Source: Clostridia bacterium
Lineage (GTDB): Bacteria > Bacillota > Clostridia > UBA1212
Assembly (NCBI GenBank): GCA_017848335.1
Contig: JAGDAX010000014.1
Span: 4,560 to 68,559, forward strand
DNA length: 64,000 nt
Reading direction: 5' to 3'
Every line of letters begins with the position of its first letter. Positions within the stretch are counted from its first letter, which is position 1. The translations under genes were made by a program, and so were the position numbers. The notes under the pieces were generated by a model, which was given only the letters and a program-made list of their open reading frames with translations, was not told where the DNA came from and did no database searches. Shown here one piece after another: positions 4,988 through 59,588 of this stretch.

Positions 4988-5149
4988 TGCGTGAATCGAA
5001 TGCGCGTGGATCGAATGCGCGTGAATCAAATCCGCGTGGATCGGGCCGCAGCTTCGTCCGCAAGGTGCGCGTGGATCAAATCCGCGTGGATCAAATTCGC
5101 GTGGTTCGGGCCGCGGCTTCGTCCGCAAGGTGCGCGTGGATCAAATCCG
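4988..5149. repeat. nested tandem repeat (15-bp GCGCGTGGATCAAAT-type units inside a ~60-bp higher-order repeat)
   Basis: Read directly. Starts 3 nt after the stop at 4985. The block CGTGGWTCGGGCCGCRGCTTCGTCCGCAAGGTGCGCGTGGATCAAATCC occurs twice. Confidence 0.85.
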
Positions 5150-7691: not shown

Positions 7692-8459
7692 ATGATTTTT
7701 AACACGTTGAGGTTTTACAGCGAGGCGCTGGGGATGCAGACCGAGGTGCTGGTGCTGCTTCCGCAGGTGGGAACCGCAGGTGAAATCGGCGTCGACAGCG
7801 GAGCAAGGTCGGGCCCGTTTAAGTGCCTGTATCTGCTTCACGGTCTCAGCGACGACCAGACCATCTGGATGCGCAGAACGTCCATCGAGCGGTACGCGGA
7901 AGCATACGGTATTGCCGTGGTAATGCCCTGCGGCGGCCGAAGCTTTTACACGGACATGAAGAAGGGCCAGAATTATTACACCTTCGTGGCGAAGGAGCTG
8001 CCCGCAAGGATCTGCGACACCTTCAACATTTCCGCGGCAAGGCGCGACAATTATATTGCAGGGCTTTCAATGGGCGGCTACGGCGCGCTCAAGATCGGCC
8101 TCCGTGAATGCGCCAGGTTCTCGAAGATCGCAGCCTTCTCTGCGTGCGCGGACATCGAGGACGTGCGGGGCGTATTTGACCCGGACGGCGCCATTTTCGG
8201 GGAGAGCGACAAGGTGGACGCCGGCGACGACCTCTTCCTGCTGGCCGATAAATACAAGGATTCCGAGCTGCGGCCGGACGTATTCATGGGCGTTGGCACG
8301 GAGGACTTCCTCTACGACGCCAACAAGAGGCTCTGCGCGCACTTCAGGGACCTGGGATACAATATCTGCTGGCGCGACTCCCACGGCAATCACGAGTGGG
8401 CCTTCTGGGACGTGTACGTGCGGTTTGCGCTGGAATGGATCTTCGGGAGAGGCGATTGA
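7692..8459 (+). CDS. esterase family protein (esterase D / tributyrin esterase-like)
   Basis: AAAGGAGG RBS. LLHGLSDD motif, nucleophile elbow GLSMGGYGA, C-terminal H (GNHEW). Confidence 0.85.
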   Translation: MIFNTLRFYSEALGMQTEVLVLLPQVGTAGEIGVDSGARSGPFKCLYLLHGLSDDQTIWMRRTSIERYAEAYGIAVVMPCGGRSFYTDMKKGQNYYTFVAKELPARICDTFNISAARRDNYIAGLSMGGYGALKIGLRECARFSKIAAFSACADIEDVRGVFDPDGAIFGESDKVDAGDDLFLLADKYKDSELRPDVFMGVGTEDFLYDANKRLCAHFRDLGYNICWRDSHGNHEWAFWDVYVRFALEWIFGRGD

Positions 8460-8575
8460 GCCGCGGAAAATTCTGAGCCGCGGAAAATGAGATTTGAGCG
8501 GCGGAAAATGAGATCTGAACCGCGGAAAAAGTGCTCGAGCCGCGGAAAAAGTGCTTGAACTGTGGAAATTATTCC
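8458..8575. repeat. ~21-bp tandem repeat, 5-6 degenerate copies (GAGCCGCGGAAAATGAGATYT)
   Basis: Read directly. Begins on the esterase stop codon and ends just before the next gene. Confidence 0.85.
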
Positions 8576-14430: not shown

Positions 14431-14548
14431 TGCGCGCCTCCTTAAGCTGCGGCGGTTACCCGGAATACTGCGGCTGTGCCGGTTGCCGCGGCAATGAACA
14501 CTGCGGCTGCTCCGTCTGCCGCGACGATAAAAACTGCGGCTTCTCCGG

Positions 14549-14728
14549 CAACCGGGTCTTCTGTGACAGCCGGGTCTTCTATGGCAGCCGGGTCTTCTGT
14601 GACAGCAGGGTCTTCTGTGGCAGCCGGGTCTTCTGTGGCAACCGGGTCTTCTGTGACAGCCGGGTCTTCTATGGCAGGCGGGTCTTCTGTGACAGCAGGG
14701 TCTTCTGTGGCAGCCGGGTCTTCTCCGG
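14549..14728. repeat. 18-bp tandem repeat x10 (CARCCGGGTCTTCTRTGR)
   Basis: Ten head-to-tail units counted directly. The most regular array in the window. Confidence 0.95.
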
Positions 14729-25487: not shown

Positions 25488-25523
25488 GGGTGTTCCTCCT
25501 TGCTGATGGTTCGCAAACGGCCC

Positions 25524-25657
25524 GGCGGCGTGTTCGGGCCGGGGCTGCGGGTTATTTCCGGCGGCGTGCTCTGGCCGGGGCTGCGGGTTATTTCCGGCGG
25601 CGTGTTCGGGCCTGGCCTGCCGGTTATTTCCGGCGGCGTGTTCGGGCAGGGCATTTC
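25524..25657. repeat. 36-bp tandem repeat, 3.7 copies (GGCGGCGTGTTCGGGCCGGGGCTGCGGGTTATTTCC)
   Basis: Counted directly. Lies between the permease stop (25677) and the start at 25487. Confidence 0.95.
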
Positions 25658-27938: not shown

Positions 27939-28188
27939 ACAGTATCCGCGGAAAAGGATCCGGCAAACGCTAGCCCGCAGCCCGTAAACGCAGGCTTGCA
28001 TTCTGCAAAAGCCATCCGCGCCGCAAGCCGCGAATCCGCGCAGGCCGCAAACCGCGCCGCAAGCCCTTTACACGGCCGCGCAAATATTATAAACTCACGG
28101 CAGCGCCGATCTGATGCTCTTTTCGCGAGTGGCGGTATTCTCATGCCATGATCCGGCGGGAATTGAGCAGGATATCCGACGGAAAAAT

Positions 28189-28310
28189 CCCGGGAAATAC
28201 CGGGGAAATGCCGGGGAAATATCCGGGAAATGCCGGGGAAATATCCGGGAAATGCCGGGAAATACCGGGGAAATGCCCGGAAAATACCGGAAAAACTGCG
28301 GAAAACCCGG
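28189..28310. repeat. 12-14-bp tandem repeat, about 9 copies (CCGGGGAAATRY)
   Basis: Read directly upstream of the GH78-like gene. Confidence 0.9.
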
Positions 28311-33359: not shown

Positions 33360-34793
33360 TCATCTGTCGATGAAAGCCAGATACCCTTTGTACGCCCAGT
33401 AAATGTCGCTCTTCGATGCGAGCTCCAAAGGAGCATGCATTGACCAGAGCGGCACGCCGCAGTCCAAGACCTCGACACCCTTGTCGGCCATGAACTGGGC
33501 GATGGTTCCGCCGCCGCCGGAGTGGATCTTGCCCATTTCGTTGATCTGCCAGGCAACGCCGTTCTCGTCGAAAATGTCTGTGACTTCACGGACAAATTCC
33601 GCGGGGCAGTCGGAGGTGCCGGATTTTCCGCCGTGGCCGGTATACTTCTCGATAGCGATGCCGCCGCCCATAAACGCCGCGTTGCTCTCGTCATAAACGT
33701 CCGCGTAGGAGGGGTCGAAGGCCGCTGTGACGTCCGCTGAAAGCATCTTGGAGGCCGCGAGACATCTGTTGGCGGTGAGCATTACCTCGCCGGGGCCGTA
33801 CAGGGCGGCGATCTCAATGGCAAAAAGCTCAAGTGAGTTGGACCTTGCGCCCGTGTTGCCGACGCTGCCGATCTCTTCCTTGTCGGCGAAATAAGCCACA
33901 GCGGTGCGGGTGGGGACGTTCTTCATGTCAAGAAGCGCCCGAAGCTCGGTGTACGCGCAGACCCTGTCGTCGTGGCCGTAAGCCGCGATCATGCCTCTGT
34001 CGAAGCCGATGTCCGTGGCTTTGGCGGCGGGTGTGATGACAAGCTCGGCGCGCTGGAAGTCCTTCTCGTCAACGCCGTACTTCTCGTTGAAGTAAGCGAG
34101 AATCTGCTGCTTCACGGTGAGCGTCTTGCTGTCCTTGTCTTCCTCGTCGATTTTGCCGGGAATGGAACCGATGATCACGTTAAGGTTCTCCGGGTCAATG
34201 AAGCTCCCCGCCGGCTTCGACATCTGGCCGCCTCCCATATGCGGAAGCAGATCCGAGATCATAAACTTGGGCTCGTCGTCATTTTCACCTATTTTTACGG
34301 TGATCTTCTCGCCGTTCTTCTTGACGATGACGCCGTGAAGAGAGAGCGGAATGGTGGGCCACTGGTACATCTTGATGCCGCCGTAATAGTGAGTGCGGAA
34401 GTAGAGGACGTTGTTCTTTTCGGAGAGGGGATTGGGCTTGAGGTCAAGTCGCGGGCAGTCCACGTGGGCGCCGACCATATTGAACCCGACCTCGGGATTT
34501 TCCTTGCCGAGCACGGCAATAAAAATGCAGCGGTTGCGGTGTACGTAATAGAGCTTCGTCCCGGGAAGCTTCTCTTTAGGAAGCTTCAGATCACGCACCT
34601 CTTCAATGGAAAGGAAGCCGGAGGCACGCAGAAGCTTAATCGCGGAATCGACCGCCTCGCGCTCGGTCTTGCTCTCGTCAAGGAACTTCTTGTAATCCTC
34701 GCAAAGCGCCGTGACCTCGGCCTTCACGGACTCGTCCATGTACTGCCAGGAATTTCTGCGCTTAAATTCCAGTTTCTCATCAAAATCAGCCAT
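33360..34793 (-). CDS. M18-family aminopeptidase (aspartyl aminopeptidase-like)
   Basis: AAGGAGG RBS. GAHVDCPRLDLKP, AYGHDDRVC, ADKEEIGS and SMHAP motifs fit the M18 metallopeptidase pattern. Confidence 0.85.
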   Translation of the reverse strand: MADFDEKLEFKRRNSWQYMDESVKAEVTALCEDYKKFLDESKTEREAVDSAIKLLRASGFLSIEEVRDLKLPKEKLPGTKLYYVHRNRCIFIAVLGKENPEVGFNMVGAHVDCPRLDLKPNPLSEKNNVLYFRTHYYGGIKMYQWPTIPLSLHGVIVKKNGEKITVKIGENDDEPKFMISDLLPHMGGGQMSKPAGSFIDPENLNVIIGSIPGKIDEEDKDSKTLTVKQQILAYFNEKYGVDEKDFQRAELVITPAAKATDIGFDRGMIAAYGHDDRVCAYTELRALLDMKNVPTRTAVAYFADKEEIGSVGNTGARSNSLELFAIEIAALYGPGEVMLTANRCLAASKMLSADVTAAFDPSYADVYDESNAAFMGGGIAIEKYTGHGGKSGTSDCPAEFVREVTDIFDENGVAWQINEMGKIHSGGGGTIAQFMADKGVEVLDCGVPLWSMHAPLELASKSDIYWAYKGYLAFIDR

Positions 34794-35120
34794 AAAAAAT
34801 ACCTCCTTGGAGATTTCAATCAGGAGGTATTATATCAGTTTTGGAAAAATAGTACACTCAAAAATTGAATAGTTTTGGATCGGTTTGGATCGGTTTGGAC
34901 CGATATTTCCGGATAAGTGTTCACGAGATATTCACAGGATTTCTTAGGTCTGACAGCATCATCGGACAAGTGAAATAGTTTGTGCTGTCAGTGATGTATG
35001 TGATTATCACAACGAGGAATATAACAATTGCAGGATGTTGACATATAATATAATGACAAAGAAGTCATTTAAGCATAAAAGACCTAAATGGCTATAATAC
35101 AATGCATGCGGAGGATTATT

Positions 35121-35963
35121 ATGAACGTTAGACTGATTACATTGGATTTACTGTCTGAATTCCAAGCGAAACTTATTGATGACGAAAAAAGCAAATATAC
35201 TATCGAAAAGTATCTGCGCGATGTTAGGCAATTTATGGTCTTTTCTGAACAAAAGAATGTAGACAAGGCACTCGTAGTGTCATACAAGGCTATGTTAAAA
35301 GACAGTTATACAGTTGAAAGCGCTAATTCCATGCTGGCGTCGATAAATGCATTCTTCAGATTTGTCGGCTGGTTGGATATTATCGTAAAACAATACAGAG
35401 TACAGAAAAAAGTTTTTTGTGAAGAAGAGAAGGAGCTCACTCGTGAAGAATATCTTCGCCTTGTTCGAGCGGCAGAACATCAACACAACGAAAGATTGTC
35501 GCTCCTTTTGCAAACAATTTGCAGTACAGGAATTCGAATAAGCGAGCTTCAATACATAACAGTTGAAGCCGTACGAACGGGCAAAGCTATTGTTTCTTGC
35601 AAAAATAAAACAAGAAGTATTTTTATTGTTAAGAAGCTCCAAAACCTACTTATTTCATATTGTGAACGCAATTCAATCAAAACCGGACAGATATTCGTTA
35701 CTAAAACAGGAAACCCAATAAATCGCTCAAATGTGTGGCGCGAAATGAAAGCTGTCTGTAAGGAGGCAGGAGTAAATCCACAGAAAGTATTCCCTCATAA
35801 CCTGCGGCACCTTTTTGCAAGAGTTTTCTACGGTATCGAAAAAGATCTTGCAAAGCTGGCTGATATTATGGGACACAGTAACATAAATACCACCAGAATT
35901 TATATTATTGCTACCGGCATTGAGCATAAGAGAAAGATGGAAAATATGAAACTACTAATCTAA
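35121..35963 (+). CDS. tyrosine-type site-specific recombinase/integrase (280 aa, Xer/Cre-size, no arm-binding domain)
   Basis: GGAGG RBS before MNVRLITL. Catalytic signature in order: R (TGIRISEL), H-x-x-R (HNLRHLF), H (GHSNINTT), Y (TRIYI; Tyr codon 35901-35903). Confidence 0.9.
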   Translation: MNVRLITLDLLSEFQAKLIDDEKSKYTIEKYLRDVRQFMVFSEQKNVDKALVVSYKAMLKDSYTVESANSMLASINAFFRFVGWLDIIVKQYRVQKKVFCEEEKELTREEYLRLVRAAEHQHNERLSLLLQTICSTGIRISELQYITVEAVRTGKAIVSCKNKTRSIFIVKKLQNLLISYCERNSIKTGQIFVTKTGNPINRSNVWREMKAVCKEAGVNPQKVFPHNLRHLFARVFYGIEKDLAKLADIMGHSNINTTRIYIIATGIEHKRKMENMKLLI

Positions 35964-35988
35964 AAATAGGCAAATTAAGCGCTTTGAC

Positions 35989-36010
35989 AACATTATGAAT
36001 ATAATGTTGT
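35989..36010. repeat. left inverted repeat of the switch (ACATTATGAATATAATGTTGTA)
   Basis: Perfect 22-bp reverse complement of 36246-36267. Itself made of 10-bp inverted arms ACAACATTAT/ATAATGTTGT (35986-36009) around an asymmetric GAAT core. Confidence 0.9.
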
Positions 36011-36052
36011 AATGATTGGCTGAAATAGTTTAGATATTCATCAACACCGCGG

Positions 36053-36082
36053 TATTATATCACGCAATACCTTTTCTTCGCA
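36053..36082 (-). promoter_or_regulatory. candidate sigma-A promoter inside the switch, currently facing the recombinase gene
   Basis: On the minus strand: TTGCGA (36082-36077), 18-nt spacer ending in TGA, then TATAAT (36058-36053). This gives a perfect extended -10. Confidence 0.45.
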
Positions 36083-36245
36083 AGTTTTTTTACACGCAAA
36101 TCCATTTTTATGAAAAATGAGTGATGGAGAGAATCTACAGCTGATAATTTAAATCAAAATCAACTGTAAGAAATCTGTCACTAATTTCATTTAAATGGCT
36201 AAAAAGCTTTAAATCAAGATGTCTATAGATGAAGGGCGCAGGGGT

Positions 36246-36267
36246 ATACAACATTATATTCATAATG
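36246..36267. repeat. right inverted repeat of the switch (TACAACATTATATTCATAATGT)
   Basis: Perfect reverse complement of 35989-36010. The central core is ATTC, i.e. opposite orientation to the left site. Confidence 0.9.
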
Positions 36268-36363
36268 TATTCATTTGACTTTCTTACAAGTCTTTTTTAA
36301 AAGCAATTTCAATAAAAAACAGAAAACTACTGATTCCGGTGATTTAAAAAGAAAGGAAAAACT

Positions 36364-38538
36364 ATGAAAACCACCAAGTTTAAGTGCTTTTTTTTCGTTT
36401 TTTTGATGCTCTTGCTTCTCTGTTCAGGTATGACGTTAAGCAACTTTTTTGCTGCTGATGTACCTAACAGAGTTTTTTCTTCTCTGGCCATAGCAGAAGC
36501 AGGAAGCACAATAGAAATACCAATATTAATCGACAATAATACCGGCTTTGCAGGTATGGGCCTTGTGTTTAAGTATGATTCAACAAAAGTCCTGCCATTG
36601 GCCATTAAAACTTCCGGAAGTATTTTTAACGGAGGCATTGAAAATGATATCGGCAGATTTGATGGATTATTTTCAGTGAACTTAAGCGGAATTGATGACG
36701 AAACAGACAACGGACTTTTGTTCACTATCACTTTTCATGTAAATGAATCTGCTGACGGAAGTACCATTATTAACGTCAGTTATGATCAAGAAAACACATT
36801 TGATGAATCGATTGAAGATGTTGCTCTCTTTTGCGAAGATATCAGTTTGACAATTCAAAACGACTTTGGAGATATGCCTGTACTCCGGCTCTCGTCCTCC
36901 CCGGTATACGCAGGGGAAAATGTGAAAATTACAGGTTCATTTGCTAAAGCAGGATTGTTAGATGAAGCTGAAATTATCTTGTCCTTTGATTCCTCTGCTT
37001 TTGAGTATGTCTCAATGAACGCTTTAAATGGTTCAATTGCTATCTCAAATATTATTTTTACGGAAAACAACTTAAGATTTCGAATGACGGTTACATCACC
37101 CATAGCTGGAGATGACTTGTTTGTTTTAACATTACACGCCAACCCGTCTGCCACCGGTAATTATTCTGTAACCGGTTACTCAAAGTTCATGTCAATTATT
37201 GAAGGCAATGTCACTGTTAATTCTCTTGACAGTATTGCAATAATAAGAAGCGATTCAGACATGAGTGCGCTGCAGCACGAATCTCTGGTTATTCCGGTAT
37301 ATCTGGAGAATAATCCCGGACTAATGGGATATAAGCTTACCATTAAGTATAATCCAACGATTATGACGCCTCTTTCTGTTGCAAACAGTGGTGTTTTCAC
37401 AGGAACATTTGATGACAATATAGGAATTCATACAGATTATTTTGACGTTAAATGGTATGGTACTGAACAGGAAACACAAAATGGTAAATTATTTGACATT
37501 ACGTTTAGAATCGATACTGATGAGTATTGTGTTCCTACGGTTTTAATAGAATACTCTCAACCTGATACTTTCAATGAGGAATACCAAGATGTTGCTATGA
37601 ATTGCAGAAGCGTGAAAGTCCTAGTTAATCCGAACCTTAGGCCTGAACTGAAGTTTTCGGGTGCATCTCTGACCTTGCACGATAATATCGCAATCAATTT
37701 TAAGGCTGATAGGAAGTTGTTTACGGATCTGGGGTATTCTGATCCTTTTGTAATATTTACCATGAATGGTGTAGAAACAACAGTTCATAAATATCGAATA
37801 ATTGATGACAAGGTGGTTTTTGATTTCAACAATATTGCTCCTCATAAGCTGAATGACACCGTCTATGTCACATTATATGCCACATACTCAGGCGAGGAAA
37901 CAATAAGCATGACACGCGAATACAGTGTCGCAACATACTGCTACAATATGCTTACTAAATATTCAACAGATGAGTATTCAAAGCTGCGCACATTGCTAGT
38001 GAATCTCTTAAATTATGGCGAATCGTCTCAAATATACGCTAACTACAAAACCGATGCTCTTGTGACAAAGGACTTAACACCGCTTCAAAAGATGTGGGGA
38101 ACGCAAGAATCTCCTTCACTGAAAACAGTCTACAATCCTGCATACACCGTCCTTGATTCACCATCCGTTCAATGGGAAGGCGTAGGCCTGAATTTAACAA
38201 ACTCTGTTGCAATGAGATTCAGGATCACGACAGCCGGCATCGCGGGTTTATCAGTTAAGGTGTCCGGTTCATCGGGTGGCGAATGGATAATCAATAATAC
38301 ATCTTTTGTACCGACTAATGGCGGGTATTATGTTTACTTTAACGGTTTGAATGTTGCTCAACTGAGCGAACCGGTTTATCTTACGGTTTATGATGGCAAC
38401 GTACCTGTCAGCAATACAATATGTTACAGTGTTGAATCATATGCATACGCAAATCAGAATGATTCAGATCAAAAGCTTTCGGATTTAGTTATTTCTATGA
38501 TGAATTACGGGAATTCTGCGTATGCATATGTGCATTGA
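36364..38538 (+). CDS. secreted protein with three cohesin-like modules and a duplicated C-terminal domain
   Basis: Signal peptide (KCFFFVFLMLLLLCSG). Cohesin-like blocks at about nt 36475-36861, 36877-37224 and 37231-37626 (e.g. AGSTIEIPILIDNNTGFAGMGLVFKYD...NGLLFTITFHV). C-terminal ~300 aa is an internal duplication ending ...LLNYGESSQIY / ...MMNYGNSAYAY. Confidence 0.8.
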   Translation: MKTTKFKCFFFVFLMLLLLCSGMTLSNFFAADVPNRVFSSLAIAEAGSTIEIPILIDNNTGFAGMGLVFKYDSTKVLPLAIKTSGSIFNGGIENDIGRFDGLFSVNLSGIDDETDNGLLFTITFHVNESADGSTIINVSYDQENTFDESIEDVALFCEDISLTIQNDFGDMPVLRLSSSPVYAGENVKITGSFAKAGLLDEAEIILSFDSSAFEYVSMNALNGSIAISNIIFTENNLRFRMTVTSPIAGDDLFVLTLHANPSATGNYSVTGYSKFMSIIEGNVTVNSLDSIAIIRSDSDMSALQHESLVIPVYLENNPGLMGYKLTIKYNPTIMTPLSVANSGVFTGTFDDNIGIHTDYFDVKWYGTEQETQNGKLFDITFRIDTDEYCVPTVLIEYSQPDTFNEEYQDVAMNCRSVKVLVNPNLRPELKFSGASLTLHDNIAINFKADRKLFTDLGYSDPFVIFTMNGVETTVHKYRIIDDKVVFDFNNIAPHKLNDTVYVTLYATYSGEETISMTREYSVATYCYNMLTKYSTDEYSKLRTLLVNLLNYGESSQIYANYKTDALVTKDLTPLQKMWGTQESPSLKTVYNPAYTVLDSPSVQWEGVGLNLTNSVAMRFRITTAGIAGLSVKVSGSSGGEWIINNTSFVPTNGGYYVYFNGLNVAQLSEPVYLTVYDGNVPVSNTICYSVESYAYANQNDSDQKLSDLVISMMNYGNSAYAYVH

Positions 38539-38630
38539 CACATATAAAAGAATAAAATGACCCATTAGAACAGTATAAAATTATGCAAGAAATTATGAAT
38601 AAATATGTATTTAGTACGGAGGAAAAGCTT

Positions 38631-41600
38631 ATGAAAAAAACAGCCTTGAGATTGCTGAGCATAGGTTTGGCGATAATAATGCTTGTTTCGGTTTTGCCGC
38701 TGAATGTGTTGGCAGTGAAAACTTCGTTGCAAGAAATCAATCTTTTTAGGGCAGAGATATATGCAAATGGTAAAAAAGCAACAAATACCAAAAGTTTTGT
38801 GGAGTATATTTCAGTCAATCAAGCAAATATATTTTCGAGTGTTGGCAACATATCAACACCTGTTCAAGTGTACTACAAGTTAGCTAAGGAAGACTTTTGG
38901 TATCAGTTTGGATTAAAAGAGTGGGAGGCGATACATGTTTTTGCTTCGCCTTCACATATTACTGAAACGGGTGAAGTGACCATTTACGAGTATTATGAAG
39001 CCATTTTGATGGACTTGATTAACAGAAATACTAATGGTACAAACGAAACACTTAAAATGGTCGATGGTGTGGCGAGTGGGGTTTACAACTCGATTTATAG
39101 TTCTTATACGAAAACATTTACGACTTTGATGCAACAAGTTTTTGCTGAGAATCCCGATATTACTGTTGAAACAATTACAACAGCAAAAACATCAAAAACA
39201 GTTAAAAATTTGTTATCAAAAGTAACAGATGAAAACTCTTACAAAAAGACCTCTGCTCTTCTCGACTTGTTAGAAACCTGTGGAAATGTTAGAGATGCTA
39301 TAAAAACCGTTTCTGCGTACAGTGCGCTATGTGATTATTTTGACGGGACAAAAGAGGTTTTGTCGTTTATTGCTAACGATCAAAACTCAACAAATCCAGT
39401 TCAATTAAAGATAGCAGCGAATAACATATTGTCCTGCTTTGATGAATCTGTTCAATCCTCGTTGAAATCGCTGGAAATTGGCGGGATAGAAATGGCAATC
39501 AAGACTGCCGGTCAAGTTATCGACAACAGTTATTCAAAAGCAATAAGTTCTAATCCGTATTTACTTGCTGCATATTTGACGGCAAAAACTGGACGGTTTA
39601 TTTTTAATGAGTTATGTAGTGTAGATAAACAAGCTGCAACGTATTATCAAATTGAGGCCAATGCCATATTTGAAAACGAATTAAAGCGTGTAGTTGATGA
39701 GTTTAGAAGTCGTTTCAATGCAAGTAAAACCGAGAAAGATGCGAAAGCATATCTTCGTGCCGTACAGATGTTCGAAGATAATATTCTTTTAGGTTGTGAT
39801 TATGTTTACGAATTTGCCTCGACAAATATCAATACAGTTTGGAATACTATTTTTGGATTAAATAAAAAGCACCAAGAGGCACTTAATGAAATCATATCTC
39901 TCAAGGGGTTGTATCAGATGGCTTTTGAAGACTATGAGAATTCTCACGTTTCAAAAGCATGGAGACAAACGTATGGTATTACTGCTGAGGAAGAGGATAT
40001 TATTAATGAAACAAACGATAATGGAACTGCTCTTTCTGGAGAAAAGGTGTTCGCTGATAAAATTGCAGTCCTAAAAAAGGAATACCCACAAGGAAAATAC
40101 TGGAATCAATATAATGGATTGGATTCGAATGGTGTAGCAAAAGCGGGAGATATAATTTGCAGTGGGACTGCGTCTTATGATAGTAAACAATGTATTTCTC
40201 ATGGGTACTGTGCATACAAAGGAAAATCATGTAGTTGTAAGTGCGGATACTTCCACGGTTGGCAATGCTTTGGATTTGCAAATCTGATGGCTTATAAAGT
40301 GTTTGGATCATATGCAACTAATGGGTATACTGCAAGCGATGTCAATTCAAGCAAGGGCTGGGTGTATTATAAATCTGTCTCGTCGTATTACGTTGGCGAT
40401 GTTGTAAGAATTAATAATAATCACTCAATCTTCATTACAAAAATAATAGGCGCTGGGATACAATATGTGGATTGCAATAATTCCGGTCCGTGCAAAATCA
40501 ACTGGAATAACACTATCACCGCCGAGAACTTAGCAAAGAAAACGACTTTTGTTGTCAGAAACACTAATTCATCGCTATCATCACTAAGTGGTTCAAGTGT
40601 TAACGGAAGTACGGTTAGTAACACTGTTTCTTATAAAATATCAAGCGCAAAAGCAACATCAATCACCAATAAATCTGCAACTATTTCTGTTGGTTTAAAT
40701 CAAAAGGCATCTGTTTCAAAGTGGACTTATTTTGTAAGCACAAACAAAAATGCGCTGGTTAATCTGGACGGAACAAGCGGAAGCACACATAAATCGACCA
40801 ATACTGTTACATGCCGTCGTATTCTTGATTACCAAGCCAACCCGAAATATGAGAAATCTGATACTTTCACAATTTCAAAACATCAGGGAGAAGATTTGAA
40901 ACCGAATACCACTTATTACTATAAAGTAACCGTATCTATAAATGGTAAGTGGTATTCAACAGGCGTTCAAAGCTTCAAAACCACCAATTATCTGCCGGAC
41001 GCTGCAAGCCTTCGTGTTTCGCGGGATAGCCAGGTGGTTGGTGTAGGCGATTCAATCACGCTTCTTTGGGATTCCACAAAGAATACAGATACCTACAGCA
41101 TTGAAGTTAAAGACGTTAATGGTATAACTGTTCAAAAGAAGACGAATATTAAAGGATTAACATACACTTTAGATCCTATTTCTGAAAGCGGCGCATATAC
41201 CGCTACAATCACCTCCGTTAATGCGGTAGGTGAGAAGTTCGGAACGAGTGCAGAATTCACCGTAGAGCCCAATCGTCTTGTGCGGTTTTATGACACGATT
41301 TCGGATGAGATGATTTACGAAGAATCTGTTCCATATGGGCACAGTGCGAATGCCCCGAAAGCGCCTACTCATTATGGACATACGTTCAGTCAATGGAACA
41401 GAAGTTATGAAAAAATCAAAGATAGCGGTGAAGGCGATGAACACATCATTACTGTTAATACGGTTTATGATCTGAACACGTATACCGTTAGATTCATTGA
41501 TGCATTTACCAATGAAATAATCAGTTCGCAATCGGTCAAGTATAAAAAATCCGCTGTTGCGCCGGTATCATTGCCGGAGCACAAAGGTTTTGAGTTTATC

Positions 41601-44600
41601 TCATGGGACAAAGGATATTCAAGTATTGAAAAGGATACGGATATCTATACTGTCTATCAGTGGGAGGATCCGGATCATCTTGCTATTCTAACAATTGATG
41701 GTGTAACACGCACAATTCCGAAAGAAAACAGCGAAGAAAATGTTGGATACGATGTTTCGGTAACGATCAGCAATTCTGCCGATAGAATTATCAGCGGAAG
41801 AGTGGTTGCCGTATTAAAATCTGCGGAGGGGACTATTCTTTCGCAGTCCGAATCTGCCGCTTTCGCGGTGGATAAGGCGCCGATGGATGCATCGGGTTCG
41901 ATTATCGGAACGACGGATAGGCAAGTAACCTTTACAGTCTTGTATGATGATTTTGCACCTCAAATCGAATTGTACCTGATCAACGACTATGACAAACTGG
42001 GGCAATTGGCACCTATGGTCAGCACTGATATTGATAATACCGGTGTATGGTCCGGATTGATTCGATTTGAAGGTGATGAACCTCCGGTTCAGTCTGACCC
42101 CGAAAAAGGTATCACGGTAGCTCTTGAAGGTCCCTTCAATGAGACAATCAAGTATTATCGTTATCGTATCCTTGAAAAGTCATATGAAACTTCTGCCTCC
42201 ACAGCCGGATACACGCAGTCAGGATATACAAAGGTGAACGCGCAGCAAAAGAGCGTAGATTATGTTGTCTCTTGGCCTTCCGGGTTTTTGAAGACAAATT
42301 CACTTTATACGCAGTATAACAAACAGCCCGTTACGGCTTCTGAAACAGCAACGCAGATTATAGAGGTCAGTTCGCCGACAACCAAGGGATATATTTATTA
42401 TCATTGGTGCATGGGGACGTATGCAAACGGTCCGATTAACCGTGGAATCAACGGCTCTAAGACTTCAACTTACAAGCAGTTCCATGCGTTCTATACCACC
42501 TCCGCAGTTTCATTTGATTCATCGGCGAAGGCTTATAAAAAATCAGTTTCCGGAACTTGTAAGGATACTTATTGGTGGTATGGCCTCACTCCGGATAAAA
42601 GCGGTAACATAATCGTTAAAACTCAGAATTATACGGTATATGACAAACTATACAATTACTATTCCGAGTATTCTGAATGGATTCCATATGTCGGTGAATG
42701 TCCTCTGACAAATGGGGCGTTGGTTGATGGTGATGCCAACAAAACTTATGAGGTGGAAACAAAGACAGAGACCAATGATTATTATTGCTATAAGTATTGC
42801 ATAAATAATACTCCTGAAGAACCTGTGTTTTCTGATGATGATCCCAGGGTTGTTAGTATCTCTGGTACGATTAGTTCGAAATTTGCAGCAAAGACAGCGA
42901 CCGTATGGATTTACAAGTATTCTCAGGCATCGGATTACACAACTGAATATGTTGGAAACACCATCGTTGGATGCGAAGGTCAATTATCTATTGAGCGTGC
43001 CGTGTTAAGAGAGGCTCCTTCTGTGCAAAGCGGTGACTATACTATTGTTGTATCTGTGCCGGGACAGGAACAAGCACTTCATCTTGGAACAATCAAAGCA
43101 CCAAAAGCAAAATATACAGTTGTTTTTGAAGATTATTTCGGCAATGTTATTTCTTCGCAAGAAATAACAGAAGGAGACTCAGCATTTGTTCCCGATTCTT
43201 CGCTTACTTGCGCTCCGGCCGGGTACCGTTTTGCCCGTTGGTCAGAATCTGTTGTCAACGTTAGGGGCAATTTAACTGTAAAGCCGGAGTTTGAAAAGAT
43301 GACCTTTGTCGTTGCATTTGTTGATTGGAATGATCAAAGCGTTATTTTGAACGAAAATATTGAATATGGATCAGAGTTGGTTTCTATAAGCTCACCTGCG
43401 GAAATCGAGGGTTATGATACTGAATGGGTCGTCCAAATCGACGATCAGTATTTAACTATCGAGGAGTTTACAGATAGCGGATACACAGTGACAGGTAATA
43501 TGGTAGTTACAACAAGAAATACGCCTAAGGATTACTCTGTCATCTTCCTGGATGCCGATCCCGAAGTTGTTCTTGAAAACAAACTACAAAATATTGATAG
43601 CGATAAGCTTTCGCCAATTGGTATTTCAGAGAACACAAATAATATTGAGGTTTTGGCAAACACCACTGTAACTTATGGTATCGGTATTGATTATTCCGCC
43701 GTTATTGAACTGGAAGAAAACGAAGATTACGTTTTCATGGGATGGATCAATGCTGCAACAGGGGAAGCATTAGAGTCTGCTGATATAACCGAATCGGTTG
43801 TTCTATACCCACGTTATGTCTTTGCTGAGACAGTTGAAATACCCGTTGCATCTATGGATAACGGAGAATATTCAGAAACGATTGAAGTTGAATTAACTCA
43901 GGAATTTGAAAGCGCTTCCATTTGGTATACATTGGATGGAACTGATCCGAAGATATCTAACACAGCAATGGAGTATACAGGAACGATAATAATCGATCAT
44001 TCGTGTGTTCTTCGGTATTATTCGAGCGCTCTCGGATTCAATGATAGTGATGAAGGATATAGGGCTTTTGCTGTCAACCTTTCTGATGATAATCGTTATC
44101 ATGTTGTTACGGTGTATGCAGTTGCAAATGTTGGACCCCTGGTGAAAGGGGAACCCTCGATTGGTCTGGTAAAAGAAGGAATTACATTACCAAACAGTTT
44201 GTTCTCCGATGCATTTGAAGGATATGCTTTTAATGGGGTTTATAAAGATTTTGACTGTAGCGAATTATTTGTTCCCGAGGCAGAAGAAATTACAGACTCC
44301 TTAGCTTTCTATGCACATTATGAGCCAATCGAGTATACTGTACATTTCTATGGGTTTGATGGAAGCTCACTTTCAACACAGACAGTTTCTTACGGAAACA
44401 AAGCTGAAGCGCCCATTGCTCCGGAAGTTGACGGATATGTGCTTGCAGGATGGGATGGTGATTACTCGTTTGTTGACGACGATCTTGACGTTTTCGCTCG
44501 ATATATTACTCCTGACGAATACGCGACAATCAGCCTTGATAAAAAGGCTATCACATTGAATGTTGGCGCATCTTACGCAAACCTTCAGACGACAATTACC

Positions 44601-45203
44601 CCGACCATCCATTCCAATTACGAGATCGAATGGTATTCCTCAAATGACGATATTGCCTCCGTAGATGAAAACGGTGTGATTACAGCGCTCTCGATTGGAT
44701 TCACAACGATTACAGCCAAACTTCCTTACACTGGTGAAACTGCAGAAGTTACTGTTAAAGTTGCTTACGATTTGGATCGTGAAATTGTCCTTTTACAGGG
44801 TGCCACAATGGGATTTGACGTGAATCGCAATCTTCGATTAACTCCAAATAATGATCTGACTGTAGATGGGGTTTTGAGATGGTTTGAAAATGCAAATCTT
44901 TCTATTTGTAAAGCTGATGGAACTGAACTTTCAGGAGATGATTTGGTCGGGACCGGATGTGTCGTCAGGCTTATGAATGATGGCGATTTAATCGACTTTT
45001 CGATAATCATTTTGACCGGTGATTACAATGGAGATGGCAAAATCAACAACAGAGACGTGGTAATGCTGAACCAGCTGATTATGGATAAACGCGATGCGGA
45101 TATCTGGCAAATAATGGCTCTTGATGTGAACGGTGACGGATATATAAATAATCGTGACAGCGCGATGCTGGCCAGATACCTTGTAGGTAAAGAAACTCTT
45201 TAG
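38631..45203 (+). CDS. giant secreted multidomain protein (2,190 aa): helical N-domain, Cys/His papain-like module, FN3, Listeria-Bacteroides repeats, BIG2, C-terminal dockerin
   Basis: GGAGGA RBS before MKKTALRLLSIGLAIIMLV (signal peptide). GWQCFGFA...NNNHSIFI module. At least five Y-x-V-x-F...G-(Y/F)-x-F-x-x-W repeats. BIG2-like block ISLDKKAITLNVG...ITAKL. Dockerin GDYNGDGKINNRD / DVNGDGYINNRD at 45018-45200. Confidence 0.9.
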   Translation: MKKTALRLLSIGLAIIMLVSVLPLNVLAVKTSLQEINLFRAEIYANGKKATNTKSFVEYISVNQANIFSSVGNISTPVQVYYKLAKEDFWYQFGLKEWEAIHVFASPSHITETGEVTIYEYYEAILMDLINRNTNGTNETLKMVDGVASGVYNSIYSSYTKTFTTLMQQVFAENPDITVETITTAKTSKTVKNLLSKVTDENSYKKTSALLDLLETCGNVRDAIKTVSAYSALCDYFDGTKEVLSFIANDQNSTNPVQLKIAANNILSCFDESVQSSLKSLEIGGIEMAIKTAGQVIDNSYSKAISSNPYLLAAYLTAKTGRFIFNELCSVDKQAATYYQIEANAIFENELKRVVDEFRSRFNASKTEKDAKAYLRAVQMFEDNILLGCDYVYEFASTNINTVWNTIFGLNKKHQEALNEIISLKGLYQMAFEDYENSHVSKAWRQTYGITAEEEDIINETNDNGTALSGEKVFADKIAVLKKEYPQGKYWNQYNGLDSNGVAKAGDIICSGTASYDSKQCISHGYCAYKGKSCSCKCGYFHGWQCFGFANLMAYKVFGSYATNGYTASDVNSSKGWVYYKSVSSYYVGDVVRINNNHSIFITKIIGAGIQYVDCNNSGPCKINWNNTITAENLAKKTTFVVRNTNSSLSSLSGSSVNGSTVSNTVSYKISSAKATSITNKSATISVGLNQKASVSKWTYFVSTNKNALVNLDGTSGSTHKSTNTVTCRRILDYQANPKYEKSDTFTISKHQGEDLKPNTTYYYKVTVSINGKWYSTGVQSFKTTNYLPDAASLRVSRDSQVVGVGDSITLLWDSTKNTDTYSIEVKDVNGITVQKKTNIKGLTYTLDPISESGAYTATITSVNAVGEKFGTSAEFTVEPNRLVRFYDTISDEMIYEESVPYGHSANAPKAPTHYGHTFSQWNRSYEKIKDSGEGDEHIITVNTVYDLNTYTVRFIDAFTNEIISSQSVKYKKSAVAPVSLPEHKGFEFISWDKGYSSIEKDTDIYTVYQWEDPDHLAILTIDGVTRTIPKENSEENVGYDVSVTISNSADRIISGRVVAVLKSAEGTILSQSESAAFAVDKAPMDASGSIIGTTDRQVTFTVLYDDFAPQIELYLINDYDKLGQLAPMVSTDIDNTGVWSGLIRFEGDEPPVQSDPEKGITVALEGPFNETIKYYRYRILEKSYETSASTAGYTQSGYTKVNAQQKSVDYVVSWPSGFLKTNSLYTQYNKQPVTASETATQIIEVSSPTTKGYIYYHWCMGTYANGPINRGINGSKTSTYKQFHAFYTTSAVSFDSSAKAYKKSVSGTCKDTYWWYGLTPDKSGNIIVKTQNYTVYDKLYNYYSEYSEWIPYVGECPLTNGALVDGDANKTYEVETKTETNDYYCYKYCINNTPEEPVFSDDDPRVVSISGTISSKFAAKTATVWIYKYSQASDYTTEYVGNTIVGCEGQLSIERAVLREAPSVQSGDYTIVVSVPGQEQALHLGTIKAPKAKYTVVFEDYFGNVISSQEITEGDSAFVPDSSLTCAPAGYRFARWSESVVNVRGNLTVKPEFEKMTFVVAFVDWNDQSVILNENIEYGSELVSISSPAEIEGYDTEWVVQIDDQYLTIEEFTDSGYTVTGNMVVTTRNTPKDYSVIFLDADPEVVLENKLQNIDSDKLSPIGISENTNNIEVLANTTVTYGIGIDYSAVIELEENEDYVFMGWINAATGEALESADITESVVLYPRYVFAETVEIPVASMDNGEYSETIEVELTQEFESASIWYTLDGTDPKISNTAMEYTGTIIIDHSCVLRYYSSALGFNDSDEGYRAFAVNLSDDNRYHVVTVYAVANVGPLVKGEPSIGLVKEGITLPNSLFSDAFEGYAFNGVYKDFDCSELFVPEAEEITDSLAFYAHYEPIEYTVHFYGFDGSSLSTQTVSYGNKAEAPIAPEVDGYVLAGWDGDYSFVDDDLDVFARYITPDEYATISLDKKAITLNVGASYANLQTTITPTIHSNYEIEWYSSNDDIASVDENGVITALSIGFTTITAKLPYTGETAEVTVKVAYDLDREIVLLQGATMGFDVNRNLRLTPNNDLTVDGVLRWFENANLSICKADGTELSGDDLVGTGCVVRLMNDGDLIDFSIIILTGDYNGDGKINNRDVVMLNQLIMDKRDADIWQIMALDVNGDGYINNRDSAMLARYLVGKETL

Positions 45204-45218
45204 AGGAAGGTGTTTATA

Positions 45219-45332
45219 ATGAACATTTTTGAATTCCCAATCATTGAGATATTTTGCTTTAATACAGAAGCCGATATAGTTACAGCCAGTAATCAAGGCG
45301 ATGGCGTCGTTTTACCGGATGATAACTGGTGA
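45219..45332 (+). CDS. unlisted small ORF (37 aa): MNIFEFPIIEIFCFNTEADIVTASNQGDGVVLPDDNW
   Basis: AGGAAGG RBS 8 nt upstream of the ATG. Begins 16 nt after the giant gene's stop and ends 46 nt before the island terminator. Below the 60-aa cutoff of the ORF track. Confidence 0.4.
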   Translation: MNIFEFPIIEIFCFNTEADIVTASNQGDGVVLPDDNW

Positions 45333-45378
45333 TTCATAATAGCAGGCGTTAAAACTTTAACATTATCATATATAATCA

Positions 45379-45422
45379 AGCCGGGACAGATGCTTTATTC
45401 ATTGCTTTGTCCCGGCTTTTTA
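45379..45422 (+). terminator. Rho-independent terminator closing the island operon
   Basis: AGCCGGGACA / TGTCCCGGCT 10-bp stem followed by TTTTT. Confidence 0.8.
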
Positions 45423-45448
45423 TTTAAGAAGCTGTTGGGCTTTTCAGT

Positions 45449-45556
45449 AATTTTGTGATGAGATGAGGATAAAAAGCCGGAATTTTGTGATGAAACGGCT
45501 CGAATTATCCGGAATTTTGTGATGAAACAGCCCAAATTATATGTAATTTTGTGATG
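45449..45556. repeat. 32-bp period tandem repeat x4 (AATTTTGTGATGAAAC...)
   Basis: AATTTTGTGATG recurs at 45449, 45481, 45513 and 45545 (exact 32-bp spacing). Ends 5 nt from the aminotransferase stop. Confidence 0.9.
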
Positions 45557-57885: not shown

Positions 57886-58716
57886 CTACAACACTATAAC
57901 CAGTTCGATCATTTGTTCGCACACAGATGAGTCGCCGATACTCACATCGTACTGTCTTACGACGGCTGTTTGATTGTTTTCAAGTATCGTGAGCAGTGTA
58001 TTTTTGATTTCGTAACGATACGTGCAGCCCTCCTTTTCAATGCTCTTGAGCTTTTGCATGGCATTTTCGTCTATCATTTTCTCTGTGTCGTCGGGAAGAG
58101 TCAGATCGTCGGGAACACGCTCTGTCATTGTGGACGCATATCCGATAATATCGCCGTCATAGTTCAAAGTTACGGAAAAGGAATCCGTGGCTGTGAATCC
58201 TGCCACTTCTTGCGAGAAACAGACTGCGGTATATTTTGAATATGGATCGTCAGACACATTAATGATCGTGTATGCGGATATATTCCTCAGTGAGGAAGCA
58301 AACTGCTTAGCCTTTTCTATACATTCGGAATCGGATAATGCTTGAACTTCAGAAGCGGCTTTTCTGGGAAAGATGAAGAAAGACAGCTTTCCGTCGGTTT
58401 CAGTCATAAACAATCCTTCATCACTCATATATTCATACTCCAAATAAGTGTTATATTTTCTTTTGGACGTGCCGGAGTATGTTCCTTTAACATCGTGACC
58501 GTCTATTGAGATCGTCATTTCTCCCGGCGCATCCGGGGATTCGCTGACAGTACAGAATTGAAAATCCGCTTCCGCTATGATGAAGTCGGCATTGTCCGAT
58601 ATATCGGACGCGTAAACCGATAACGTTTTGTTGTTTCTATACGGGTCGGTCGCACATCCGAAGGCAGAACCTGCAACCAGTACGACGGTAATTACTAATA
58701 TGATCATCTTTTTCAT
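57886..58716 (-). CDS. hypothetical lipoprotein (276 aa) in a low-GC islet
   Basis: AAGGAG RBS before MKKMIILVITVVLVAGSAFGC (lipobox). The local sequence is visibly more AT-rich than its neighbours. Confidence 0.75.
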   Translation of the reverse strand: MKKMIILVITVVLVAGSAFGCATDPYRNNKTLSVYASDISDNADFIIAEADFQFCTVSESPDAPGEMTISIDGHDVKGTYSGTSKRKYNTYLEYEYMSDEGLFMTETDGKLSFFIFPRKAASEVQALSDSECIEKAKQFASSLRNISAYTIINVSDDPYSKYTAVCFSQEVAGFTATDSFSVTLNYDGDIIGYASTMTERVPDDLTLPDDTEKMIDENAMQKLKSIEKEGCTYRYEIKNTLLTILENNQTAVVRQYDVSIGDSSVCEQMIELVIVL

Positions 58717-59041
58717 GGTTTGTGTCTCCTTATTCATAATTGTTCATAAATCAGAAAGTTGGCACGCCGAAAATCTTCAGCAGCTTAAGTCTACCGTATC
58801 ATTTCGTAACAGTCTTACTACAAAACGTTACACTATCCGGCACACAGCACACCTGGCACACAGAGCGCAGCACATGGAACACAGAGCGCATACGGTGATT
58901 TGCGGTCTTTGAAACACTGCAGTCATTGAAACGATGAGAGCAAAGCAAAACCGGCGGAAGGTGGAAATGCCGGGCGAAAAACGTAATATTCCTGCGGAGC
59001 TGCCGTGCGGCAAACCGTTTTATTCGATAAACACTGAAAAC

Positions 59042-59187
59042 CCGAAAAAAACGATATTCCGCGACGATCTCGAAAAGCCCCGAAAAAAAACGATATTCCG
59101 CGACGATCTCGAAAAGCTCCGAAAAAAACCGACATTCCGCGATACCTCCGAAAAACCGCGATACCCCCGAAAAACCGCGATAGCCCC
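59042..59187. repeat. tandem repeat: ~38 bp x2 (GAAAAAAACGATATTCCGCGACGATCTCGAAAAGCYCC) then ~19-29 bp x3 (GAAAAACCGCGATA-type)
   Basis: Read directly. A further CGGCKTTTYC-type array follows at about 59250-59335. Confidence 0.9.
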
Positions 59188-59588
59188 GGATATGATCCGG
59201 CGTTTTAACTGTCATATTCCCTGCCGGCCGATTCTCTGTTATTTCCCGCGGGAACCGGCTTTTTCGGCTTTTCCGGCGTTTTCCGGCGTTTTCTGCTTTT
59301 GCGGCGCGATTTGCGGCTTTTTTGCACCTGTTGAGGCGTTTTTTTCCTTGACTAATTTGCCGCGCTGGTATACTATTTACACAGCAGATTTGAGGGGCAT
59401 TTTTTTTACCGCAGGAGTCTGCGTTATTTTTGGGATTTCAGCAGACTTAACGTGCGGCCTTTCCATTCGCGGGCCTTATTCAAACGGGTATTGACGCGGA
59501 TCTGCGGCGGGTTTGCGGCGTCCGGCTGTCTGTTATTCACGATTCTAAACCATCCACACGATCAAACTATTTTTAAGGAGACCAGATT

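Follow-up and report, generated by a model that had tools for sequence, protein, structure and literature searches.

An invertible segment with a predicted promoter between an Xer-like recombinase gene and cohesin–dockerin genes in an AT-rich block of a Clostridia genome

What is a gene of the phage integrase family doing at the edge of an AT-rich block that sits between two housekeeping genes? The question is raised by a 64,000-nt stretch of a Clostridia bacterium contig (JAGDAX010000014.1, positions 4,560 to 68,559; hereafter the window, in whose own numbering coordinates are given). Between an aminopeptidase gene and an aminotransferase gene, the window carries genes for an Xer-like tyrosine recombinase, a secreted cohesin-domain protein and a giant secreted protein that ends in a dockerin. 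The initial annotation regarded the recombinase as the only mobility-type gene of a recently acquired island. We think it very likely that the block is a cassette of three genes gained by horizontal transfer, and that the product of the first gene is not an integrase but a dedicated DNA invertase that switches the other two genes (the cargo). On this reading an easy mis-annotation is corrected: a gene that bears the label ‘phage integrase family’ and borders an AT-rich island would here encode a phase-variation invertase.

An invertible segment beside the recombinase gene

A 27-nt inverted repeat with 93% complementarity, which had escaped the initial annotation, lies between the stop codon of the recombinase gene (35963) and the start of the cohesin gene (36364), where it encloses 235 bp. 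Its perfect core is 22 nt long, and the left core starts 26 nt past the recombinase stop. The region consists of the following features.

35121–35963, plus strand: gene for the Xer-like tyrosine recombinase (280 amino acids), starting after a GGAGG ribosome-binding site
35985–36011, plus strand: left inverted repeat (IRL), found by repeat search, with its perfect core at 35990–36011
36012–36246, no strand: invertible segment of 235 bp, defined by the flip in contig L006 and by the segments of relatives
36054–36083, minus strand: predicted switch promoter, with a -35 element TTGCGA, an 18-nt spacer and an extended -10 element TGaTATAAT (10 of 12 consensus positions plus the TG)
36247–36273, minus strand: right inverted repeat (IRR), perfect core 36247–36268, with a spacer TATTCA that is the reverse complement of TGAATA

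Each arm can be read as CAACATTA-TGAATA-TAATGTTG, in which an asymmetric spacer of 6 bp separates two inverted half-sites of 8 bp. The left site occupies 35988–36009, about 25 nt past the recombinase stop, and a near-perfect inverted copy is found at 36249–36270. The two arms are the sole copies in the window when up to three mismatches are allowed (0 expected by chance), and no third recombinase site is present in the 64 kb. The spacers are in inverted orientation, and inversion rather than excision is therefore predicted.

The exact 280-residue recombinase is present on six public contigs of the same strain (L001–L006; sequences fetched for comparison carry L numbers), which are 99.4–99.9% identical to the window. 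An exact-protein look-up with a 291-residue version of the open reading frame (ORF) gave no record. L001, L002 and L004 have the segment in the window's orientation. In L006 it is flipped: past IRL, positions 6491–6523 of that contig are the reverse complement of window positions 36214–36246. L003 and L005 break off precisely where the left arm borders the segment (window position 36011). These contigs are direct evidence that both orientations of the segment are present in natural populations of the strain.

The recombinase matches Pfam Phage_integrase (1e-25) together with an N-terminal SAM-like domain. Its scores against the NCBIfam models for XerA (131 bits, cut-off 220) and XerD (115 bits, cut-off 330) are both below the cut-off, and the model for FimB/E-type invertases gives only 30 bits (cut-off 221). 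The best match among solved structures is 4a8e, which is XerC-like. Without exception, 33 relatives of the protein share residues R139, K163, H226, R229, H252 and Y261; by analogy with Xer recombinases, they would form the tyrosine-recombinase catalytic set. We infer that this protein is the invertase of the adjoining switch, that is, the enzyme that flips the 235-bp segment.

The switch promoter is the top promoter-like match in the 34.7–36.5 kb interval. It is located inside the invertible segment and faces the recombinase gene in the window's orientation; after inversion, its -10 element would end about 42 nt before IRR and be aimed at the cohesin gene. Neither the interval from IRR to the cohesin start nor the one that separates the two cargo genes holds a promoter-like site, and the cargo as a whole has no excess of such sites (20 found, 29.9 expected). 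We read the window as the OFF state of a switch on which the cargo would depend.

We suggest the following mechanism. The Xer-like recombinase would act on the two inverted sites and flip the 235-bp segment, close to one end of which stands a single strong extended -10 promoter. As oriented in the window, this promoter would fire back at the recombinase gene and leave the cargo OFF. After the flip it would fire through the right repeat, and the cohesin and giant genes would be transcribed as one operon, on an ON transcript with a 5′ untranslated region of about 150 nt that ends at the terminator at 45379–45422. The cohesin protein would then hold the 2190-residue dockerin protein at the cell surface, and a large surface complex would be expressed only in a subpopulation (phase variation).

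A family of probable recombinase-linked switches and its known counterparts

The recombinase has many relatives. All 8000 scored candidates were found at E < 1e-10, and the best 120 of these 8000 protein matches are 63–70% identical to the recombinase and 279–313 amino acids long. The relatives that we fetched comprise three long contigs, with 66–69%-identical recombinases, and 80 metagenome loci (52–63% identity). A common layout is seen in about 60 of 84 fetched loci: a repeat no more than 58 nt past the recombinase stop codon, a segment, an inverted copy of the repeat and cargo genes on the same strand. The repeat pair of the family is ACATAAT-nnnn-ATTATGT(TGTA) and encloses 196–316 bp, mostly 220–245. 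Across 67 distinct segments, a TTGnnn-17-TGnTAnAAT promoter motif ends 21–54 nt from one segment edge. In 47 of these segments the match with the highest score points at the recombinase, in 18 it points at the cargo (the conserved position accounts for 16), and two are ties. Four pairs of loci (L051/L058, L048/L055, L048/L077 and L076/L070) have segments that are 93–96% identical only after one of the two is flipped. Several further contigs of relatives end at or close to a repeat.

Members of the family occupy unrelated loci and precede unrelated cargo, and each has its own adjoining inverted-repeat pair. We surveyed the first two ORFs of 61 non-redundant loci, 118 proteins in all. Band-7/SHOCT proteins (9/118) were found along with collagen-repeat proteins (7/118), Eco57I-type IIG restriction-modification proteins (7/118), giants with BspA-type leucine-rich repeats (LRR; 5/118), cohesin proteins (3/118) and type III restriction-modification proteins (2–3/118). 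Zinc-ribbon, AgrB and GGDEF proteins likewise occur among the cargo of relatives. Further cohesin or dockerin cargo is present in L104, L053 and L070, and the cargo of L036 includes a gene with a TIR domain.

In L036–L038 (cargo at about 10145–14627 in L036), L035 and L040–L119, near relatives of the window's switch and recombinase stand ahead of defence-like or toxin-like operons. Their defence-like cargo includes a Band_7/SHOCT plus TIR_2 protein, Eco57I-type IIG and type III restriction-modification systems, and patatin/DUF87/Gln_amidase genes. Defence systems of gut Clostridia may thus be phase-variable via the switch cassette.

Two further observations concern the relatives. In L035 (9844–9870), L036, L039, L046, L062, L081, L083 and L096, the stretch from the recombinase stop to the left repeat contains, by eye, an A-run and then a GC-rich hairpin (for example AAAA-GCCGCC...GGCGGC). 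On the minus strand this element becomes a hairpin followed by a T-run, a terminator for transcripts from an OFF-oriented promoter. The record L126 (NZ_OY725740.1), named ‘plasmid 16’ of Monoglobus pectinilyticus, has rplA, rplK, nusG, secE and rpmG beside a family recombinase; because it carries ribosomal-protein genes, this record, the one plasmid match examined, looks like a chromosome fragment and not a plasmid.

DNA-inversion promoter switches are well known, and the proposed one in the window would be a tyrosine-recombinase inverton. In the fim system, tyrosine recombinases are encoded beside a short invertible segment (314 bp) whose promoter drives a surface-structure operon in one orientation. 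The window resembles Escherichia coli fimS/FimB/FimE in that its recombinase gene adjoins a short invertible segment with a predicted promoter. However, it has one recombinase rather than two, the protein is Xer-like, and its sites are dif/lox-like, with half-sites and a 6-bp spacer within 22-nt repeats, whereas fim has 9-bp repeats. The Xer/dif systems (XerC/D, XerA and XerH) provide the best sequence and structure matches of the recombinase and have inverted half-sites around a 6-bp spacer alike. The window's protein nevertheless scores far below the equivalog cut-offs, and its site is not a single dimer-resolution site but an inverted pair that flanks a predicted promoter.

Clostridioides difficile offers a different arrangement. 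The cwpV and flgB switches there act by termination after a fixed promoter and not by a promoter within the segment; in cwpV, the OFF orientation forms a terminator downstream of the fixed promoter. The tyrosine recombinase RecV is reported to invert short segments upstream of surface or signalling genes (cwpV, flgB, cmrRST and pdcB; PMC7446863, PMC9286219, PMC6837544). RecV is one enzyme for many distant switches, whereas each recombinase of the window's family has its own adjacent switch.

The nearest counterpart is found in a study of the hCom2 community with PhaseFinderDC (Microbiome 2025; PMC11892184). It describes a Clostridia ‘inverton group 139’, linked to tyrosine recombinases of ‘invertase group 35’ that are encoded no more than 5 kb away, with repeats of 14–26 nt enclosing about 205–230 bp. 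The 33 invertons of the study come from cultured human-gut strains, and flipping was seen at read level in Clostridium sp. D5 and Intestinimonas. Like the window's switch, these are short intergenic Clostridia invertons of similar dimensions with a tyrosine recombinase nearby, and the recombinase is classed as not itself switch-regulated (PMC11892184). Judged by dimensions and description, the window's switch is likely to belong to group 139. The DeepInverton paper (PMC11602134) holds nothing specific on Clostridia.

The family can be recognized by a simple signature: a recombinase stop codon, about 25 nt, ACATAAT-n4-ATTATGT(TGTA), about 236 bp and an inverted copy, with a TTGnnn-17-TGnTAnAAT promoter 21–54 nt from one edge. 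It marks a widespread and cargo-promiscuous switch family in uncultured gut and rumen Clostridia. Genes behind the signature can be predicted to be heterogeneously expressed, which bears on metatranscriptomes and on studies of phage–host interactions and defence systems. Assembly is affected as well, with contigs breaking at switch sites.

The cohesin protein and the giant dockerin protein

The two cargo genes encode the following products and domains.

36364–38538, plus strand: secreted cohesin-domain protein (724 amino acids), with a signal peptide and two stretches matching Pfam Cohesin (6e-16)
38631–45203, plus strand: giant secreted protein (2190 amino acids); the ORF opens at 38583 (2206 codons), and 38631 is the start called in public contigs
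40026–40652, plus strand: domain B of the giant (amino acids 482–690 of the 2206-codon ORF), a cysteine-rich, CHAP-like domain of predicted papain fold, assigned from homologues, AlphaFold2 (AF2) and Foldseek
45018–45182, plus strand: type I dockerin at the C-terminus of the giant (Pfam Dockerin_1, 3.9e-11; matches to solved dockerins, e.g. 6kg9 at 2e-6)

The cohesin protein is a near-orphan. Apart from its own cluster it has five distant matches, 24–40% identical; an exact look-up found it not on record, and residues 401–724, the C-terminal 300 or so, match no family. The giant is modular: a signal anchor is followed by a helical domain A, the CHAP-like domain B, fn3/Ig/Flg_new repeats, Big, CHB_HEX_C and Big_2 domains, and the dockerin. 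We suggest that the cohesin protein would hold the giant at the cell surface via this dockerin.

Domains A and B, at the N-terminus, are unannotated and have many homologues (741 at E < 1e-3 for domain B). In an alignment of 20 homologues, domain B has an invariant cysteine in the motif WQC(F/H)GFA and an invariant histidine in HS(I/V)F (C88 and H140 in the alignment). A single-sequence AF2 model of giant residues 461–720 was unusable, with a predicted local distance difference test (pLDDT) score of 31, and we used an alignment-based model of domain B instead (pLDDT 81). With this model, Foldseek retrieved CHAP endolysins and Gsp amidase at a best E value of 2.7e-4 and a probability of 1.0, with a template-modelling (TM) score of only 0.36. 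Pfam CHAP has no match in the window's giant, and PDB sequences searched with a domain B profile gave nothing meaningful. Homologues of domain B also carry SH3_3, ricin-B, Peptidase_M23 and dockerin domains. P0137, a 2186-residue protein of the same overall architecture as the giant, has a canonical Pfam CHAP domain at the position of domain B; over a 720-residue N-terminal query from the giant, its match covered mainly domain A (37% identity). These data are consistent with domain B being a putative peptidoglycan amidase or endopeptidase.

A secreted multi-cohesin protein encoded beside a type I dockerin protein is also what is found in the cellulosomes of Clostridia and Ruminococcus. However, neither Pfam nor NCBIfam recognizes a glycoside hydrolase or a carbohydrate-binding module in the cargo proteins of the window, or an anchor of the S-layer homology (SLH) or sortase type; a CHAP-like domain and Ig-like repeats are found instead. 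A further difference is that expression in the window is predicted to be gated by DNA inversion. This combination suggests that cohesin–dockerin assembly is used beyond fibre degradation, for the bet-hedged display of a putative cell-wall hydrolase. The searched literature contains no paper that pairs ‘inverton’ with ‘dockerin’, and papers that join phase variation or DNA inversion with cohesin and dockerin do not appear, by title and abstract, to address such a system.

More tentatively, the invertase and its segment of about 236 bp may be a self-contained, portable phase-variation cassette that gut and rumen Clostridia have coupled repeatedly to costly or exposed functions and that travels horizontally with its cargo. 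The functions gated would then be giant adhesins, collagen-like and LRR proteins, cohesin–dockerin pairs, type IIG and type III restriction-modification, and TIR/Band-7 operons; in the window the cassette would gate a surface-docked CHAP-type antibacterial or wall-remodelling complex. We regard this extension as possible rather than probable. If it is true, the locus represents a non-cellulolytic, bet-hedged use of cohesin and dockerin in a rumen bacterium, which is not described in the searched literature.

Origin of the block and alternative explanations

The block and its immediate surroundings contain these additional features.

33360–34793, minus strand: M18 aminopeptidase gene (Pfam), left flank, with the gene start at 34793
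34850–45445 (approximate), no strand: AT-rich foreign block, bounded by composition alone
35021–35049, plus strand: candidate promoter (ATAACA-17-TATAAT) 5′ of the recombinase gene, recognized by consensus alone
45220–45333, plus strand: 37-codon ORF (MNIFEFPIIEIFCFNTEADIVTASNQGDGVVLPDDNW) between the giant stop and the terminator, a candidate only
45379–45422, plus strand: intrinsic terminator closing the predicted operon (fold dG -24.9 kcal/mol, z -5.9, then UUUUU)
Stop at 45561, minus strand: PF12897 aspartate aminotransferase gene (Pfam), right flank

In 500-nt windows, the guanine-plus-cytosine (GC) content falls from 0.54–0.63 outside to 0.32–0.46 within about 34,750–45,500, the sole large GC dip across the 64 kb; a minor second dip is seen at about 58–59 kb. 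GC content at third codon positions (GC3) is 0.36 for the recombinase gene, 0.36 for the cohesin gene and 0.35 for the giant gene, compared with 0.75–0.82 in four flanking host genes. The tetranucleotide distance to the remainder of the window is 0.55–0.74 for the block and 0.12–0.18 for background. The sharp drop in GC between the aminopeptidase and aminotransferase genes, the A/T-ending codons and the strong terminator, all reported in the initial annotation, are thus borne out. Its five plus-strand ORFs reduce to three substantial ones (35121–35963, 36364–38538 and 38631–45203), all indeed on the plus strand.

We compared the junction with that of ten related species, represented by rumen and hindgut metagenome-assembled genomes whose aminopeptidase is 56–79% identical. 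In all ten the aminotransferase gene is upstream of the aminopeptidase gene on the same strand, and the recombinase, the cohesin protein and the giant are absent from the junction. The flanking genes are directly adjacent, with gaps of 8–70 nt, in the distant relatives L012, L013 and L033. In six closer species, 1.9–8.4 kb of other genes with host-like GC lie at the junction: L007–L010 have 1.9–3.7 kb with two conserved genes, and L014 and L015 have 7–8 kb of secreted lipoprotein-like genes. The initial annotation had proposed to look for an empty junction among close relatives: three distant relatives have nothing between the two genes, the closer species have other inserts, and no empty site was found within the species, where an exact aminopeptidase look-up gave only the six island-bearing contigs; exact look-ups of the aminotransferase with two candidate starts gave no records.

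The cargo pair recurs elsewhere. At L127:3458–12561, the giant P0137, 49% identical to the window's over its full length, is preceded by a cohesin protein that is 37% identical over 405 amino acids. That module has a GC content of 0.40–0.48 against a background of 0.57 and different neighbour genes, and it lacks a recombinase. A fixed promoter-like sequence, TTGACA-17-TGATACACT, lies upstream of it. The pair of cohesin and giant genes is thus conserved as a module and is found AT-rich in more than one genome. In the window, a switch whose GC is just as low either came with the module or was joined to it, which supports horizontal transfer. Overall, the block is compositionally foreign and lineage-specific, and a horizontal origin, as the initial annotation had proposed, is supported by the GC3 of the recombinase, the absence of the genes from the junction in relatives and the AT-rich homologous module in L127. 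The low-GC Firmicute donor named there is plausible, and none was identified: a word-indexed search with the giant's N-terminus had no match and the cohesin protein returned only its five distant ones. The acquisition was also called recent, for which lack of amelioration is the sole ground.

Could the recombinase be the integrase that inserted the block between the housekeeping genes, and that could excise it again as an integrative genomic island? Its gene is at one end of a compositionally foreign block, and the junction varies among related species. Other findings speak against it. The two boundary regions share no word of 9 nt or more as a direct repeat, and the best inverted repeat is a 10-mer that is equalled or beaten in 27% of shuffles. 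No tRNA or tmRNA gene is present in the window and no Rfam family matches at 34–46 kb, in agreement with the initial annotation, which could find neither flanking direct repeats nor a tRNA target. The sites of the recombinase occur only as the adjoining pair, whose inverted arrangement gives inversion and not excision, and the segment is flipped in a natural contig. The protein itself is a 280-residue Xer-like recombinase with few matches in plasmid and phage collections (5 plasmid records and 1 phage record, 36–50% identity). Its relatives share the layout at unrelated loci with unrelated cargo, and the homologous cargo module in L127 has no recombinase at all. We therefore consider an integrase very unlikely and retain a dedicated invertase as the preferred reading. 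It is somewhat easier to imagine, but still improbable, that the inversion is real and regulates the recombinase itself, or acts via a terminator or antisense RNA in the manner of cwpV. The switch promoter does face the recombinase gene in the window, and L035, L036 and L039 have a terminator-like hairpin inside the segment (by eye). Against this, neither the stretch from the recombinase stop to IRL nor that from IRR to the cohesin start contains a strong fixed promoter, and the near-consensus extended -10 element keeps its place 21–54 nt from the segment edge and faces the cargo in about one quarter of assembled copies. The two mechanisms can also coexist.

We give hardly any credence to the remaining explanation, in which AT-richness reflects gene class (large surface-protein genes) rather than transfer and assembly across an inverted repeat produced the flipped contig as an artefact. 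The cargo of relatives is often AT-richer than the DNA upstream of the recombinase (0.56 versus 0.38 in L035, 0.51 versus 0.35 in L076), and the L127 module is AT-rich in its host too. However, a GC3 of 0.36 is also found for the recombinase, a cytoplasmic protein, so that gene class by itself does not account for the composition; it is further rejected as the cause because L014 and L015 have, at the junction, genes for secreted lipoproteins with a host-like GC of 0.57–0.60. The initial annotation had itself raised gene class, with the same genes expected at the same place in related genomes; in ten of ten related species, the syntenic site lacks the island. As to the artefact, assemblers do break at repeats, but the flipped junction in L006 runs 33 nt beyond a repeat of 22–27 nt, which should need reads from flipped molecules, and four independent pairs within the family show the flip.

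Several points weigh against our reading of the block as an acquired invertase cassette. Within the species, the flipped state rests on one contig end, 33 nt past the repeat, and two contig breaks. Promoter function and the ON/OFF control of the cargo are deduced from consensus and position. By eye, the hairpin that L035, L036 and L039 have between the recombinase gene and the left repeat has no clear counterpart in the window, where transcription from the OFF-state promoter may therefore run on, in antisense, into the recombinase gene. Pfam and NCBIfam recognize neither an SLH nor a sortase anchor on the cohesin protein. The CHAP assignment of domain B combines a fold match of low TM score (0.36) with the motif and the domain context. 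The searches for a donor and for repeats at the ends of the block found neither.

Some minor features of the window complete the description. At 34949–34992, in the AT-rich DNA that separates the aminopeptidase start from the recombinase gene, a perfect stem of 9 bp (CTGACAGCA ... TGCTGTCAG) encloses a loop of 24 nt, and no T-run comes after it. Tandem repeats at the edges of the block (34874–34899 and 45477–45556) were considered as att sites or insertion scars and dropped, similar repeats being common throughout the window. The 32-nt edge repeat unit is found nowhere else in the window and, among fetched loci, only in L001, which is of the same strain. Short tandem repeats are abundant, with 62 Tandem Repeats Finder (TRF) rows in 64 kb and periods of 10–65 nt; examples are at 5001–5149, 8457–8568, 14547–14724, 25522–25651, 28185–28290 and 59041–59188. 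The second AT-rich dip (57886–59300, GC 0.44) contains a gene for a lipoprotein-like protein of 283 amino acids (57886–58737, minus strand), followed by a non-coding stretch dense in tandem repeats of 19–39 nt.

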